In this document: piece by piece, positions 1-6,245 of the stretch
Layout: each line of letters begins with the position of its first letter
Numbering within the stretch: position 1 is the stretch's first letter
Origin: a virus
Lineage: Duplodnaviria; Heunggongvirae; Uroviricota; Caudoviricetes
IMG/VR virus record: IMGVR_UViG_2802429253_000001
Span: 1 to 6,245 of that record
Direction: 5' to 3' (one strand)
DNA: 6,245 nt
Position numbers and translations under genes: made by a program
The notes under the pieces: model-generated
What the model saw: only the letters and a program-made list of their open reading frames with translations
Told to the model about the DNA's origin: nothing
Database searches by the model: none

Positions 1-1
1 C

Positions 2-148
2 CATATTCCTGAACAACTGAGCAAACGAGAGAGGTATACCGACAAATGGCAGCGACGCACACACTCCCTCTGGCGTCACCGGGCATGGCACGCATCTGCC
101 TTTACGGGGATTTGCAACGATTTGGCCGCCGCATCGACCTTCGTGTGA
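2..148 (+). CDS. K: 3' end of tail-tip assembly protein K gene (partial, 5' end outside window). Frame 2 is open from the window edge to TGA at 146-148 and overlaps the start of I by 103 nt.
   Basis: Reading frame starting at nt 2 is uninterrupted to the TGA at 146-148. The 103-nt overlap with the I start at 46 matches the lambda K/I overlap as I recall it. The 48 visible codons are too few to identify by sequence alone. Confidence 0.6.
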   Translation, partial: HIPEQLSKRERYTDKWQRRTHSLWRHRAWHASAFTGICNDLAAASTFV

Positions 149-687
149 AAACGGGGGCTGAAGCCATCCGGGCACTGGCCACACAGCTCCCGGCATTTCG
201 TCAGAAACTGAATGAGGGCTGGTATCAGGTGCGCATTGCCGGGCGTGATGCAGGAGAAACCGAATTATCATCCCGTCTTAATGAGCCGCTGGCAAATGGT
301 GCCGTGATCCACATCGTGCCGCGTCTTGCGGGAGCAAAAAGTGGCGGTGTGTTTCAGGCGGTGCTGGGTGCGGCGTTGATTGCTACGGCAATCTGGATGC
401 CGGGGATCAGTATCGCTTTCAGTGACATTCTCTTTTCAATGGGTGCGGCGATGACGCTTGGCGGTGTTGCACAGATGCTGGCACCGAAAGCGAGTACCGC
501 AACAACGACCAGCACGGATAACGGAAAGCAGAACACCTATTTCTCCTCACTGGATAACATGGTTGCCCAGGGCAATGTCCTGCCCGTTCTGTTCGGTGAA
601 ATGCGCGTGGGGTCACGTGTGGTTTCTCAGGAGATCAGTACAGCTGATGAAGGTGATGGTGGTGAAATCGTGGTGATTGGTCGCTGA
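46..687 (+). CDS. I: Tail assembly protein I (lambda gpI family), 213 aa
   Basis: ATG at 46, TGA at 685-687. The N-terminus MAATHTLPLASPGMARICLYGDLQRFGRRIDLRVKTGAEAIRALATQLPAFRQKL and C-terminus DNGKQNTYFSSLDNMVAQGNVLPV..GEMRVGSRVVSQEISTADEGDGG..VVIGR match lambda gpI as I remember it, with a hydrophobic central segment. Position immediately upstream of J. Confidence 0.9.
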   Translation: MAATHTLPLASPGMARICLYGDLQRFGRRIDLRVKTGAEAIRALATQLPAFRQKLNEGWYQVRIAGRDAGETELSSRLNEPLANGAVIHIVPRLAGAKSGGVFQAVLGAALIATAIWMPGISIAFSDILFSMGAAMTLGGVAQMLAPKASTATTTSTDNGKQNTYFSSLDNMVAQGNVLPVLFGEMRVGSRVVSQEISTADEGDGGEIVVIGR

Positions 688-705
688 TGTAACATGTTTT
701 ATGTG

Positions 706-726
706 AAACCGCCTGCGGGCGGTTTT
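706..726 (+). promoter_or_regulatory. Hairpin in the I-J spacer (8-bp stem AAACCGCC/GGCGGTTT, 4-nt loop TGCG, short T tract); possible attenuator or RNA-stability element
   Basis: Read directly: 706-713 AAACCGCC pairs with 718-725 GGCGGTTT. The only T run is TTTT at 723-726, which overlaps the stem, so a true intrinsic terminator is doubtful. Confidence 0.35.
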
Positions 727-747
727 GTCGTTTATGGAGCATGAGGT

Positions 748-3700
748 ATGGGTAAAGGTAGCAGTAAGGGGCATACCCCGCGCGAAGCGAAGGACAACCT
801 GAAATCCACGCAGTTGCTGAGTGTGATCGATGTCATCAGCGAAGGGCCGATTGAAGGTCCGGGGGATGGATTAAAAAGCGTGCTGCTGAACAGTACGCCG
901 GTGCTGGACAGTGAGGGGAATACCAATATCTCCGGCGTCACGGTGGTGTTCCGGGCAGGTGAGCAGGAGCAGACACCGCCGGAGGGATTTGAATCCTCCG
1001 GCTCCGAGACGGTGCTGGGTACGGAAGTGAAATATGACACGCCGATCACCCGGACCATCACGTCGGCAAACATTGACCGTCTGCGTTTTACTTTCGGCGT
1101 GCAGGCACTGGTGGAAACTACCTCAAAGGGTGACCGGAATCCGTCGGAAGTCCGCCTGCTGGTTCAGATACAACGTAACGGTGGCTGGGTGACGGAAAAA
1201 GACATCACCATTAAGGGCAAAACCACCTCGCAGTATCTGGCCTCGGTGGTGGTGGATAAACTGCCGCCGCGCCCGTTCAATATCCGGATGCGCAGGATGA
1301 CGCCGGACAGCACCACAGACCAGCTGCAGAACAAAACGCTCTGGTCGTCATACACCGAAATCATCGATGTGAAACAGTGCTACCCGAACACGGCACTGGT
1401 CGGCGTGCAGGTGGATTCGGAGCAGTTCGGCAGCCAGCAGGTGAGCCGTAATTATCATCTTCGCGGGCGCATTCTGCAGGTGCCGTCGAACTATAACCCG
1501 CAGACGCGGCAATACAGCGGTATCTGGGACGGAACGTTTAAGCCAGCATACAGCGACAATATGGCCTGGTGTCTGTGGGATATGCTGACCCACCCGCGCT
1601 ACGGCATGGGGAAACGTCTTGGTGCGGCGGATGTGGATAAATGGGCGTTGTATGTCATCGGCCAGTATTGCGATCAGTCAGTGCCGGATGGCTTTGGTGG
1701 CACGGAGCCGCGCATCACCTGTAACGCTTACCTGACCACACAGCGTAAGGCGTGGGATGTTCTCAGTGATTTCTGCTCGGCGATGCGCTGTATGCCGGTA
1801 TGGAACGGGCAGACGCTGACGTTCGTGCAGGACCGACCGTCGGATAAGGTGTGGACCTATAACCGCAGTAATGTGGTGATGCCGGATGATGGCGCGCCGT
1901 TCCGCTACAGCTTCAGCGCCCTGAAGGACCGCCATAATGCCGTTGAGGTGAACTGGATTGACCCGGATAACGGCTGGGAGACGGCGACAGAGCTTGTGGA
2001 GGACACGCAGGCCATTGCCCGTTACGGTCGTAACGTCACGAAGATGGATGCCTTTGGCTGTACCAGCCGGGGGCAGGCACATCGCGCCGGGCTGTGGCTG
2101 ATTAAAACGGAACTGCTGGAAACGCAGACCGTGGACTTCAGCGTGGGTGCCGAAGGGCTTCGCCATGTACCGGGTGATGTCATTGAAATCTGTGATGATG
2201 ACTATGCGGGGATCAGCATCGGCGGGCGCGTGCTGGCGGTGAACAGCCAGACGCGGACACTGACGCTCGACCGTGAAATCACGCTGCCATCCTCCGGCAC
2301 CACGCTGATAAGCCTGGTTGACGGACAGGGGAATCCGGTCAGCGTGGAGGTCCAGTCCGTCACCGACGGCGTGAAGGTGAAAGTGAGCCGGGTTCCTGAC
2401 GGCGTTGCCGAGTACAGCGTGTGGGGGCTGAAGCTGCCGACGCTGCGCCAGCGCCTGTTCCGCTGTGTGAGTATCCGTGAGAACGATGACGGTACGTATG
2501 CCATCACTGCCGTGCAGCATGTACCGGAGAAAGAAGCCATCGTGGATAACGGGGCGCACTTTGACGGCGACCAGAGCGGCACGGTGAATGGTGTCACGCC
2601 GCCAGCAGTGCAGCACCTGACCGCAGAAGTCACCGCAGACAGCGGGGAATACCAGGTGCTGGCGCGCTGGGACACGCCGAAGGTGGTGAAGGGGGGGAGC
2701 TTTATGCTTCGCCTGACCGTGGCAGCGGATGACGGCAGTGAGCGGCTGGTCAGCACGGCCCGGACGACGGAAACCACATACCGCTTCACGCAACTGGCGC
2801 TGGGAAACTACAGGCTGACAGTCCGGGCGGCAAATGCCTGGGGGCAGCAGGGCGATCCGGCATCGGTATCGTTCCGGATTGCCGCACCGGCAGCGCCGTC
2901 TCGGATTGAGCTGACACCTGGCTATTTTCAGATAACCGCCACGCCCCATCTTGCCGTTTATGATCCGACGGTACAGTTTGAGTTCTGGTTCTCGGAAAAG
3001 CGGATTGCGGATATCAGGCAGGTTGAAACCACAGCCCGCTATCTTGGCACGGCGCTGTACTGGATAGCTGCCAGTATCAATATTAAGCCGGACCATGATT
3101 ATTATTTTTACATTCGCAGTGTGAACACCGTTGGCAAATCGGCATTCGTGGAGGCTGTCGGTCGGGCGAGCGATGATGCGGAAGGTTACCTGGATTTTTT
3201 CAAAGGCCAGATAACTGAATCCCATCTCGGCAAGGAGTTGCTGGAAAAAGTCGACCTGACAGAGGATAACGCCAGCAGACTGGATCAGTTTTCGAAAGAG
3301 TGGAAGGACGCCAACGATAAGTGGAATGCCATGTGGGGCGTCAAAATTGAGCAGACCGAAGACGGTAAGCATTATGTCGCGGGGCTTGGCCTCAGCATGG
3401 AGGATACAGAGGAAGGCAAACTGAGCCAGTTCCTGGTTGCCGCTAACCGTATCGCGTTTATTGACCCGGCAAACGGGAATGAAACGCCGATGTTTGTTGC
3501 GCAGGGCAACCAGATATTCATGAACGAAGTGTTCCTGAAGTATCTGACGGCTCCCACCATTACCAGCGGCGGCAATCCTCCGGTATTTTCCCTGACACCG
3601 GACGGGCGGCTGACGGCGAAAAATGCGGATATCAGCGGTAACGTGAACGCGAACTCCGGGACGCTCAACAACGTCACGGTAAATGAAAACTGTACGATTA

Positions 3701-4161
3701 AGGGCATGCTGGAGGCGAACCAGGTCAGAGGTGACTTCGTTAAAACTGTCTCCAAATCATTCCCGAAACAGGCTGGTACGTGGGGTAACACGGAAACACC
3801 AAACGGGACGGTTACAGTCACCATTTACGATGATCATAACTTTGACCGCCAGATTATTATTCCGCCCATTATTTTTAACGGTGTGGCGTATGACGATCCG
3901 GGGAGCGGTAATAACCCGGGAGGTACGCGATACACGGGTTATGGTTTTGAAGTTCGCAAAAACGGCGTATTAATCGCATCCAGAGAAACTAAAGGAGCCA
4001 TTCCCGGTAGTTACAGTGCGGTTATTGATATGCCGAGTGGTGGTGGTAGCGTCACTCTGGAGTTTAAGATTTTCCAGAAAGGCAATCAGGGCGCAGGTAA
4101 CATCACAGACTGTACGGTGATTGTGACCAAAAAAGCTGCTTCCGGTATCAGTATTAGTTGA
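748..4161 (+). CDS. J: Central tail fibre / host specificity protein J (lambda gpJ family), 1137 aa
   Basis: ATG at 748 preceded by GGAG at 737-740 (7-nt spacing); TGA at 4159-4161. N-terminus [28 protein letters not shown] and most of the body are near-identical to lambda gpJ (1132 aa) as I recall it. Lambda gene order is preserved. Confidence 0.95.
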
Positions 4162-4178
4162 ATTTTATAACCCCAATA

Positions 4179-4207
4179 CGGGCGCCAGAAATGGCGCCTT
4201 TTTTATT
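4179..4207 (+). terminator. Rho-independent terminator downstream of J (tJ-like)
   Basis: GGCGCC (4181-4186), loop AGAAAT, GGCGCC (4193-4198), then a T-rich run at 4199-4207 (TTTTTTATT). Confidence 0.65.
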
Positions 4208-4228
4208 GCAGAAAAGCGAGAGGTAATT

Positions 4229-4828
4229 ATGCGTAAATTATGTGCTGTTATTCTGTCTGCAGTAGTCTGGCTGGTCGCCGCTGGTACGCCAGCGAGCGCA
4301 GCAGAGCATCAGTCCACACTAAGCGGCGGGTATCTTCAGTCCCATACTGATATGCCCGGCAACGATGACCTGAAGGGCATTAACGTGAAATACCGTTATG
4401 AATTTACGGACACGCTGGGGCTGGTGACGTCATTCAGCTATGCAGGAGACAAGAATCGCCAGCTTACCCGTTACAGCGATACCCGCTGGCATGAGGATTC
4501 CGTGCGTAACCGCTGGTTCAGCATGATGGCGGGGCCGTCTGTACGCGTGAATGAATGGTTCAGTGCTTATGCGATGGCAGGTGTGGCTTACAGCCGTGTT
4601 TCGACGTTCTCCGGGGATTATCTCCGCGTAACTGACAACAAGGGGAAAACGCACGATGTGCTGACCGGGAGTGATGGCGGTCGCCACAGCAACACGTCTC
4701 TGGCGTGGGGGGCTGGCGTGCAGTTTAACCCGACCGAATCCGTGGCCATTGACCTTGCTTATGAGGGTTCCGGCAGTGGCGACTGGCGCACTGACGGTTT
4801 CATCGTGGGTGTCGGTTATAAATTCTGA
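4229..4828 (+). CDS. lom: Outer membrane protein Lom (Ail/Lom/PagC family beta-barrel), 199 aa with N-terminal Sec signal peptide
   Basis: ATG at 4229 preceded by GAGAGG; TGA at 4826-4828. Signal-peptide-like N-terminus [24 protein letters not shown]. Body ([48 protein letters not shown]...[10 protein letters not shown]) is near-identical to lambda Lom as I recall it, and ends in the aromatic residue typical of outer-membrane beta-barrels. Position between J and stf as in lambda. Confidence 0.95.
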
Positions 4829-4854
4829 TTAGCCAGGTAACACAGTGTTATGAC

Positions 4855-4881
4855 AGCCCGCAGATTCTGGCGGGCTTTTTT
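4855..4881 (+). terminator. Rho-independent terminator downstream of lom
   Basis: AGCCCGC (4855-4861), 8-nt loop AGATTCTG, GCGGGCT (4870-4876), followed by TTTTTT (4876-4881). Confidence 0.7.
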
Positions 4882-4892
4882 GTGGAGTGGAT

Positions 4893-6158
4893 ATGGCAGC
4901 AGTAAAAATCTCAGGTGTGCTGAAAGATGGTGCGGGAAAACCAATACAGAACTGCACTATTCAACTGAAGGCAAAGCGTAACAGCACCACGGTACTGGTG
5001 AACACGGTGGCCTCTGAAAATCCGGATGAAGCCGGGCGTTACAGTATGGATGTTGAGTATGGCCAGTACAGCGTCATCCTGCTGGTTGAAGGTTTTCCGC
5101 CTTCACATGCCGGAACCATTACCGTCTATGAAGGCTCCAGACCAGGTACGCTGAATGATTTTCTCGGTGCCATGACGGAAGAGGATGTCATGCCGGAGGC
5201 ATTGCGTCGTTTTGAGGCAATGGTGGAAGAAGCGGCACGCAACGCCGAAGCCGCCTCTCAGAGCGCAGCGGCGGCAAAGAAATCCGAAACTGCAGCGGCA
5301 TCATCGAAGAACGCGGCGAAAACCTCAGAAACGAATGCAGCTAACAGCGCACAGGCGGCAGCGGCCTCGCAGACTGCATCGGCAAATTCCGCGACAGCAG
5401 CTAAAAAATCAGAAACCAACGCGAAAAACAGCGAGACAGCCGCAAAGACGAGCGAAACCAACGCAAAGTCCAGCCAGACGGCAGCGAAGATCAGCGAAAC
5501 AAATGCCAAAGCCAGTGAAACTGCGGCGAAAAGCAGTCAGGATGCAGCAGCCGAAAGCGAGAGCGCGGCAGTCGGTTCTGCGACTTCAGCAGCCGGATCA
5601 GCAACTGCTGCGGCTAACAGCCAGCAAGCAGCGAAGACGAGCGAAACTAACGCAAAGTCCAGCCAGACGGCAGCGAAGACCAGCGAAACGAATGCCAAAG
5701 CCAGCGAAACTGCGGCGAAAAACAGTCAGGATGCAGCAGCCGAAAGCGAGAGTGCTGCAGCTGGTTCTGCAACAGCGGCAGCTAATAGCCAAAAAGCTGC
5801 AAAAGCCAGTGAAACTAACGCAAAGACGAGTGAAACAAAAGCAGCAGCCAGCGAGACAGAAGCAACGTCAGCCGCAACAAGAGCAGAGAATGCAGCCCGG
5901 ATTGCAGAAGATGCCGCTGATCCTGCTTCTGTCCCTCCGCTTCCTGATATCTGGCTACCCTTGAATGATTCTCTGGAAGCGATAACAGGGTATGCCCCGG
6001 GCTATAAAACAATAACCATCGGCAGTGATGAAATAACAATGCCTGTTAATGGCATATGCCAATTTAGCCGCGCTTCATCAGCAACGTATATTGATAAGTC
6101 CGGGCATATTACCGTGGCTGAAGCGGCGCACGAAAAACGCGAAAACGTTTCACGATAA
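4893..6158 (+). CDS. stf: Side tail fibre protein (lambda Stf / orf-401-like N-terminal anchor, long heptad-repeat shaft, short divergent C-terminal domain), 421 aa from the ATG
   Basis: ATG at 4893 with GGAG at 4884-4887 (5-nt spacing). The ORF track begins at an in-frame GTG at 4887, which I judge less likely. TAA at 6156-6158. N-terminus MAAVKISGVLKDGAGKPIQNCTIQLKAKRNSTTVLVNTVASENPDEAGRYSMDVEYGQYSVIL closely matches the N-terminus of lambda orf-401/Stf as I recall it. Confidence 0.85.
   Translation: MAAVKISGVLKDGAGKPIQNCTIQLKAKRNSTTVLVNTVASENPDEAGRYSMDVEYGQYSVILLVEGFPPSHAGTITVYEGSRPGTLNDFLGAMTEEDVMPEALRRFEAMVEEAARNAEAASQSAAAAKKSETAAASSKNAAKTSETNAANSAQAAAASQTASANSATAAKKSETNAKNSETAAKTSETNAKSSQTAAKISETNAKASETAAKSSQDAAAESESAAVGSATSAAGSATAAANSQQAAKTSETNAKSSQTAAKTSETNAKASETAAKNSQDAAAESESAAAGSATAAANSQKAAKASETNAKTSETKAAASETEATSAATRAENAARIAEDAADPASVPPLPDIWLPLNDSLEAITGYAPGYKTITIGSDEITMPVNGICQFSRASSATYIDKSGHITVAEAAHEKRENVSR
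5271..5921 (+). repeat. 21-nt periodic coding repeat: 31 consecutive heptads (consensus A-A-K-x-S-E-T / N-A-K-x-S-x-T) inside the side tail fibre gene
   Basis: Translation of residues 129-345 (track numbering) divides into 31 heptads with no stutter: AAKKSET AAASSKN AAKTSET NAANSAQ ... RAENAAR IAEDAAD. Confidence 0.85.
5439..5795 (+). repeat. Tandem direct duplication inside stf: copy 1 at 5439..5627 (189 bp, 9 heptads), copy 2 at 5628..5795 (168 bp, 8 heptads), with high nucleotide identity
   Basis: Copy 1 encodes AAKTSETNAKSSQTAAKISETNAKASETAAKSSQDAAAESESAAVGSATSAAGSATAAANSQQ. Copy 2 encodes AAKTSETNAKSSQTAAKTSETNAKASETAAKNSQDAAAESESAAAGSATAAANSQK. The copies differ by one heptad (GSATSAA-like) and a few substitutions. 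Confidence 0.85.
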
Positions 6159-6160
6159 AT

Positions 6161-6180
6161 GCGAAAACTTTACTTTTCGC
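6161..6180 (+). other. AT-rich hairpin just after the stf stop (GCGAAAA / loop CTTTAC / TTTTCGC)
   Basis: Read directly: 6161-6167 pairs with 6174-6180. No following T tract, so probably not a terminator on its own. Confidence 0.3.
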
Positions 6181-6193
6181 GCTTCAAACGAAA

Positions 6194-6218
6194 CAGCGGC
6201 ATTGGCCGCTGCTTTTTT
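6194..6218 (+). terminator. Strong rho-independent terminator downstream of stf
   Basis: CAGCGGC (6194-6200), loop ATTG, GCCGCTG (6205-6211), then C and TTTTTT (6213-6218). Confidence 0.75.
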
Positions 6219-6245
6219 ATTCATTAAGTGGAATCACTTCGGGTA

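Follow-up and report, generated by a model that had tools for sequence, protein, structure and literature searches.

A tail fiber gene of a lambdoid prophage, very probably interrupted by the right end of a Mu-like transposable phage

The 6,245-nt stretch of tailed-phage DNA analyzed here (positions 1 to 6,245 of IMG/VR record IMGVR_UViG_2802429253_000001, hereafter the window) carries on its + strand a lambda-type tail-tip block with the gene order J-lom-stf, recognized from the list of open reading frames (ORFs) and from Pfam matches, and it finishes shortly after a stf-like side tail fiber ORF (4893-6158, +; 421 aa from its ATG). Judged from sequence comparison, the region containing the end of this ORF is composed of two unrelated sequences joined between positions 6118 and 6119, a fiber gene on one side and the right end (attR) of a Mu-like transposable phage on the other. 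We consider it very likely that a Mu-like transposable phage, or a derivative keeping its right end, transposed into the stf gene of a lambdoid prophage, an interpretation that we accept because the fiber homology breaks exactly at the Mu terminal TG; gene disruption by phages of the Mu type is textbook biology. As far as the alignments indicate, this particular stf-Mu junction is new, and both of its component sequences are close to annotated ones.

A first-pass annotation of the window, made by a model from the letters alone, had drawn attention to the 421-aa ORF, to its lambda-unlike tail, to the AT-richer DNA encoding it and to a hairpin with a T-run after the stop codon, and all of these sequence facts hold. 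It was also right in considering the gene end abnormal, the product being about half of the expected length (785 aa when intact), and in stating that the region beyond 6245 matters. Three readings of the ORF had been offered, namely (a) a complete short fiber with a small novel tip, (b) a proximal adaptor whose distal part is encoded separately, and (c) a fiber truncated by recombination with downstream cargo. The last one came closest: the gene is truncated, although the probable agent is Mu transposition, starting at 6119, and not a recombination with cargo.

The junction and the Mu-like right end

When 5800-6245 was compared by megablast with 5,426 complete Escherichia coli genomes, 200 of them gave matches, and those listed, with 99.1-99.4% identity, all ended at query base 319, which is position 6118 of the window. 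No match spanned the junction in any of the 5,426 genomes and none covered 80% of 5800-6245; the stf-Mu junction was also absent from the GTDB species representatives, the IMG/VR viral contigs and the JGI metagenome contigs. The intact site, on the other hand, was present in 138 complete genomes, as determined with a 241-nt probe placed across it (at least 80% coverage). In the intact gene the pentamer GTGGC is followed by AGGGAATAAC (in its longer form by AGGGAATAACGTT, the protein reading VAGNNVPRFEKYGLLIENQ), while in the window it is followed instead by TGAAGCGGCG; an uninterrupted stf would thus read GTGGCAGGGAATAAC, whereas the junction of the window is GTGGC joined to TGAAGCGG.

In a base-level alignment the Mu terminus (TGAAGCGGCGCACG, also written TGAAGCGGCGCACGAAAAACG) begins exactly at position 6119, and the stf and Mu-end partners have no common sequence at the join. 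The segment 6119-6245 (- strand, terminal TG at 6119-6120) represents the right end of a Mu-like phage. The element is inverted with respect to stf, and the fiber gene consequently reads straight into it. This segment aligns on the opposite strand with the final 127 nt of both Mu (36591-36717) and SfMu (37020-37146), with ~86% identity. Moreover, the 27-nt Mu terminus was matched without mismatch at 6119-6145 (0 matches expected by chance), the only departure from Mu in these terminal 27 nt being an A for G, both purines, at the last base.

Three MuA-binding sites are found at each end of Mu, those of the right end being R1 to R3 (PMC3362531), and all three were recognized in the window. R1 (CGGCGCACGAAAAACGCGAAAA; 6124-6145, +) differs from the R1 of Mu at the last base only, and by manual count it has four mismatches to the 22-bp MuA consensus, the same number as the R1 of Mu itself. 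R2 (6146-6167, +) has one mismatch to YGTTTCAYTNNAARYRCGAAAR, and R3, which is inverted (6174-6195, -) and conserved in Mu and SfMu, also has one mismatch to the consensus; 0.01 matches of the quality of R2 and R3 would be expected by chance. Transposase-binding sites are annotated at the same offsets in the GenBank record of phage D108, with which the 3' part of the sequence that we take to be the 22-bp consensus agrees. In the paper describing SfMu (PMC4406740) no statements on attR or on target duplication were found.

The last bases of the window, 6234-6245 (-), probably correspond to the end of the mom gene, translating on the minus strand into YPK followed by the stop codon. The mom gene of Mu reaches to 36602, which is 115 nt short of the right end, and the mom stop of the window lies at the same offset. 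Of mom the window includes just these three codons and the stop; the E. coli sequences that align here are annotated as mom. In 93 E. coli genomes, 6119-6245 matches the end of a Mu-like prophage on its mom side, with up to 97.7% identity and the annotation 'protein mom', and these prophages adjoin genes unrelated to each other, such as flhA, torZ, yeaE, a permease gene and a type VI secretion system (T6SS)/Rhs region. The closest complete relative of this end is a Mu-like prophage of E. coli 06-00048, ~35 kb long by annotation, whose genes run from the homologues of MuA and MuB through com and mom. It encodes a Mu transposase, an AAA ATPase, Gam and Mor, the head, tail sheath, baseplate and tail fiber proteins, Com and an ORF at the mom position.

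The tail fiber of the 06-00048 prophage (L009 35297-37546) shares its PGAP name, 'prophage tail fiber N-terminal domain-containing protein', with the lambdoid Stf, which hints at fiber modules common to Mu-like and lambdoid phages. Because of this shared name, homologous recombination between fiber genes was considered as the origin of the junction, and it was rejected: the break coincides with the Mu terminus and not with homology between fiber genes.

The proposed insertion would have followed the established steps of Mu transposition. MuA would have bound R1-R3 together with L1-L3 at the other end and cut at the terminal CA-3', the ends would have been joined to target phosphates staggered by 5 bp, and repair would have duplicated the 5-bp target. 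The presumptive target pentamer is GTGGC at 6114-6118, abutting the Mu terminus. If so, a second GTGGC and the stf codons 409-785 would be expected past the Mu left end, ~35-37 kb away, the far junction being a Mu-like left end (of the TGTATTGATTCACTTGAAGTACGAAAA type, in reverse complement) running into GTGGC AGGGAATAACGTTCCTCG.

Several observations weigh against this interpretation. Of the element the window shows only 127 nt, which include neither the transposase genes nor the left end nor the 5-bp duplication; no second sequence with this junction came up, and it thus lacks an independent replicate; and the source is a draft assembly, in which a chimeric join is formally possible. The pentamer itself adds little. 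The target preference of Mu is quoted as 5'-CYSRG-3' (PMC7350765), and in GTGGC the central T-G-G fits the Y-S-R core, while the outer C and G do not; such a fit would occur by chance about 1 time in 8 and the preference is only ~7-fold, so this agreement weighs little.

An exact-protein look-up indicated that the whole 6,245-bp window is the draft contig PTSB01000055.1 of assembly GCA_002965125.1, in which the stf-like ORF is a called gene. The window being the complete contig, base 6245 is the contig end and no biological boundary. The first-pass remark that no long frame continues beyond the stop codon therefore holds as stated and says little, as the contig ends 87 nt past that stop. Such a short draft contig, ending only 127 nt past the join, together with the absence of the junction from the other collections searched, speaks for a chimeric contig or read path joining stf and Mu, the real stf being intact in the genome. 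We judge this very improbable, since the join coincides with the Mu terminal TG at single-base precision, as transposition produces, its partners have no common sequence at the join that could have misled an assembler, and the same look-up records the contig in two samples.

The Mu-derived part has a length of exactly 127 nt (6119-6245), a value that is also a common upper limit for the k-mer size of assemblers. A de Bruijn assembler working at k = 127 outputs the unique edge followed by exactly k bases of the repeat that it runs into, and an overhang of 127 nt would thus be normal for the true edge between unique DNA and a repeat at this k-mer size, which argues against a chimeric join. This overhang suggests that the Mu end was a repeat or branch node in the source assembly, joined to more than one flank, either through several copies or through ongoing transposition. 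In the latter case, which we regard as a doubtful though conceivable extension of the transposition interpretation, an active Mu-like phage would have been caught transposing in the strain, and the contig would end exactly one k-mer into the element because the Mu end was joined to several flanks in the culture.

A sub-variant of the insertion into stf is that what lies beyond 6245 is a mere remnant of an old insertion that later suffered a deletion, either a Mu right end standing alone or a defective element with parts deleted. Nothing past 127 nt is visible and defective prophages are common; nevertheless, we consider a remnant unlikely, because the end is ~96-98% identical over roughly 127-129 nt to the ends of complete Mu-like prophages, R1-R3 are undecayed, and the event seems to be recent, given the ~99% identity between the stf DNA flanking the element and intact alleles. 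The absence of the insertion from the 5,426 complete genomes is likewise as expected if it is strain-specific and recent.

The truncated ORF and the intact fiber family

The ORF at 4893-6158 (+) is truncated and chimeric: its residues 1-409 are of fiber origin, and residues 410-421 plus the stop codon come from Mu-end DNA. The prophage tail fiber N-terminal domain PF08400, the attachment part that resembles that of lambda Stf, is encoded at 4899-5288 (+; Pfam E = 7.7e-67). It is followed by a repeat shaft rich in Ala, Ser, Thr and Glu (5289-5918, +), with a strong AT skew, in which Tandem Repeats Finder detected periods of 42 nt (14 aa) and 189 nt (63 aa); between 5412 and 5843 the 42-nt units are nested in a tandem repeat of 189 nt present in ~2 copies, which are 82-90% identical. 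Repeats of this kind are likely to cause problems when fiber genes of this family are assembled and annotated. Next comes a 67-residue stub of the distal module (aa 343-409, DPASV...HITVA; 5919-6118, +), defined by homology to the fiber family, and finally 12 accidental codons, EAAHEKRENVSR, and TAA (6120-6158, +), read through R1 and R2 of the Mu end. We assign residues 410-421 and the stop to the Mu sites because the register with the intact 785-aa homologue is kept up to Ala409 and ends there, codon 409 itself being interrupted. The product finishes in HITVAEAAHEKRENVSR (also written KSGHITVAEAAHEKRENVSR), just before the stop codon.

The ~75-residue C-terminal domain proposed in the first-pass annotation is unlike lambda, as it had been described, and is not one unit: the tail, ~79 aa long in our count, consists of 67 fiber residues (aa 343-409) and 12 residues translated from Mu-end DNA. 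GC content is 0.460 in 5922-6245 against 0.545 in 4893-5921, with 0.560 in the Ala-rich shaft, and the Mu-derived piece has a GC content of 0.441; the fiber stub and the Mu end look like a single unit because both are AT-rich.

The intact form of the gene is annotated in E. coli Z247 as one 785-aa coding sequence, and E. coli N3 also has these 785 codons as an open frame. In N3 (L001 7094-9451) RefSeq gives a partial pseudogene at 7094-7460 and a 'phage head spike fiber domain-containing protein' at 8240-9451, a discrepancy with Z247 that looks like an inconsistency of annotation, not biology. The distal module of the intact gene has 443 aa and a GC content of 0.432, compared with 0.542 for the N-terminal domain plus shaft. 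Composition and homology thus place a real mosaic boundary at ~5919-5922, internal to the fiber family; the module boundary predicted earlier is a genuine join in this sense, although it is not the end of the gene.

The 79-residue tail of the window protein aligns through its residues 4-69 only to positions 358-423 of the tail protein family PHROG 1419, which has 793 positions, while the intact distal part spans positions 358-793 (E = 1.4e-185). The NCBIfam spike-fiber domain NF048003, located at aa 422-627 of the intact protein, where it shows weak sequence similarity to the head spike fiber of the Rhodobacter gene transfer agent (6tb9, E = 0.0014), is missing from the window protein, whose stub lacks the rest of the distal module, this domain included. 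By these comparisons the 421-aa product keeps the attachment domain and the shaft and has lost ~85% of the distal module.

That the protein is instead a naturally short fiber with a small novel tip, or a proximal adaptor whose distal part is the product of another gene, might be suggested by the 421-aa ORF being open and followed by a terminator-like hairpin, and by the stf of lambda PaPa, which is also split, into orf-401 and orf-314. We see practically no chance for this reading: the final 12 codons and the stop codon belong to the attR of Mu, the homologues run 376 residues further in one frame, the stub matches just positions 358-423 of PHROG 1419, the hairpin travels with Mu-like elements and not with stf, and the 421-aa end occurs in no other genome of the collections searched. 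A complete short fiber is contradicted by the sequences from Z247 and N3, which continue to 785 aa, and by the 138 uninterrupted genomes; a proximal adaptor found no support.

If stf was interrupted by a Mu-like phage, as we propose, the lambdoid prophage would no longer make functional side fibers, and with a full-length insert (35-37 kb) its genome would be too long for cos packaging. The source genome would then contain at least one Mu-like transposable phage and one lambdoid prophage minus its side fiber, the latter probably also unable to be packaged. For annotation purposes, the 421-aa 'tail fiber' should be considered an insertionally truncated, pseudogene-like product, neither a short fiber nor a new receptor-binding tip, and its residues 410-421 should be kept out of fiber domain libraries. 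In general terms, the terminus of a mobile element can be recognized close to the end of a contig by an ORF that breaks off in an abrupt, unfamiliar way and is followed by a neat hairpin.

Downstream of stf the intact relatives have an 89-aa ORF and then a fiber protein containing Peptidase_S74; a tfa-type gene was neither annotated nor detected there, so the tfa-like chaperone gene that the first-pass annotation had suggested looking for did not appear in these relatives. Integration at a tRNA or att site and cargo of the type III effector kind were also considered and discarded, as none of them is present within the visible 127 nt. In the related intact prophage of E. coli N3, an Avs2 (AVAST type 2) anti-phage defense gene lies directly 3' of the tail-fiber cluster (L001 11635-16089), and cargo of some kind thus occupies in that prophage the position that had been flagged as a cargo-insertion site.

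The hairpin between R3 and mom

The terminator scan detected a GC-rich hairpin flanked by an A-run and, on its opposite side, a T-run (6194-6218, the hairpin proper being 6194-6211, followed by CTTTTTTATT), which starts 35 nt past the stf stop codon. Its predicted folding energy is -14.1 kcal/mol on the + strand (z = -3.6 against shuffled controls) and -16.1 kcal/mol on the - strand, while the equivalent segment of Mu folds at only -4.5 and -3.6 kcal/mol. The hairpin has 7-10 bp in this E. coli Mu-like lineage, and the outer CAG...CTG of the segment is common to Mu and SfMu.

This hairpin had been taken for a strong terminator of stf, an assignment that does not survive the comparison with other genomes. 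It lies in Mu-derived DNA, next to mom, and it accompanies Mu-like ends elsewhere, at numerous chromosomal positions unrelated to each other; an identical hairpin is present in the Mu-like prophage of E. coli 06-00048, at an unrelated locus, and the 3' context of intact stf genes differs from the hairpin context of the window. The hairpin is thus a lineage-specific part of the Mu-like element, just downstream of mom, and it is probably a bidirectional terminator, predicted to act on mom and on incoming transcription. One further possibility, carrying the same doubt as the active transposition mentioned above, is that it works as a bidirectional insulator, which would shield the Mu end from late transcription of the host or the lambdoid prophage and keep mom transcripts from leaving it. 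Either active transposition or an insulator, if true, would be a modest addition to Mu biology and no new kind of system. A search of 4700-6245 against Rfam at a permissive E-value gave only chance-level matches, all of them far below the gathering scores, and no known structured RNA.

Neighboring genes and comparison with known systems

Upstream of stf the window encodes an I-like gene (46-687, +; PF06805), J (748-4161, +; 1,137 aa, with all J domains detected by Pfam) and lom (4229-4828, +; PF06316). The final ~500 nt of J (3662-4161), which encode the C-terminal receptor-binding domain, have a GC content of 0.47 compared with 0.56 for the whole gene, which points to another mosaic receptor-binding module. 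An antisense open frame of 564 aa is contained within J (1678-3372, -), where the regional GC content reaches 0.66; it is most likely a composition artefact, the J domains on the + strand being well supported. Between lom and stf there is a second terminator-like hairpin (4855-4876, +), with the stem AGCCCGC...GCGGGCT followed by TTTTTTG, whose stem is also present in E. coli N3 with another loop (L001 ~7056-7077); a weak Rfam match to Trp_leader at this position probably reflects mere likeness to a terminator. The databases disagree on the exact 421-aa protein, which is present in the index of encoding contigs and absent from the protein cluster collection.

Regarding lambda, its Stf has a homologous N-terminal domain and proximal shaft, and the genes follow the same order J-lom-stf. 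The Stf of Ur-lambda has 774 aa, and in lambda PaPa the gene is split into orf-401 and orf-314. BLASTP against orf-401 aligned only residues 3-273 of the window protein, with 60% identity, and no significant similarity to orf-314, the distal part of Stf, was found by BLASTP with either the window protein or the intact homologue; the distal module of lambda is thus unrelated to that of the fiber family described here. The window gene has the PF08400 domain directly after J and lom, as a lambda-type Stf does, and lacks the lambda-like distal region; in its intact relatives no gene annotated or detected as tfa follows. Loss of side fibers in this prophage would parallel the fiberless stf frameshift of lambda PaPa, which likewise has a disrupted stf, but by a frameshift, the agent here being in all likelihood the insertion of a transposable phage.

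The closest fiber is the 785-aa protein of E. coli (PHROG 1419; WP_061089081.1, named 'prophage tail fiber N-terminal domain-containing protein' or 'phage head spike fiber domain-containing protein'), which shares with the window gene the position after J and lom, the N-terminal domain and the repeat shaft, and whose gene has 99% DNA identity with window 5800-6118. Compared with it, the copy in the window stops at residue 409, without the NF048003 domain and the C-terminus; it is a truncated member of PHROG 1419 that gives no full-length colinear match over the ~790 positions of the family.

With respect to the inserted element, Mu and SfMu (genus Muvirus) have R1, R2 and the inverted R3 at the same offsets as the window and a mom stop ~115 nt from the end. 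The overall identity of Mu itself to the end found in the window is just ~86%, whereas the ends of the E. coli Mu-like prophages, which carry com and mom, reach ~96-98% identity along roughly 127-129 nt. A further difference is found in the 18 nt that separate R3 from mom, forming a GC-rich hairpin here (CAGCGGCATTGGCCGCTG) and being AT-rich in Mu and SfMu, where in Mu it barely folds. Finally, unlike that of Mu and SfMu, the annotation of the E. coli 06-00048 prophage lists no invertase in the neighborhood of com and mom.

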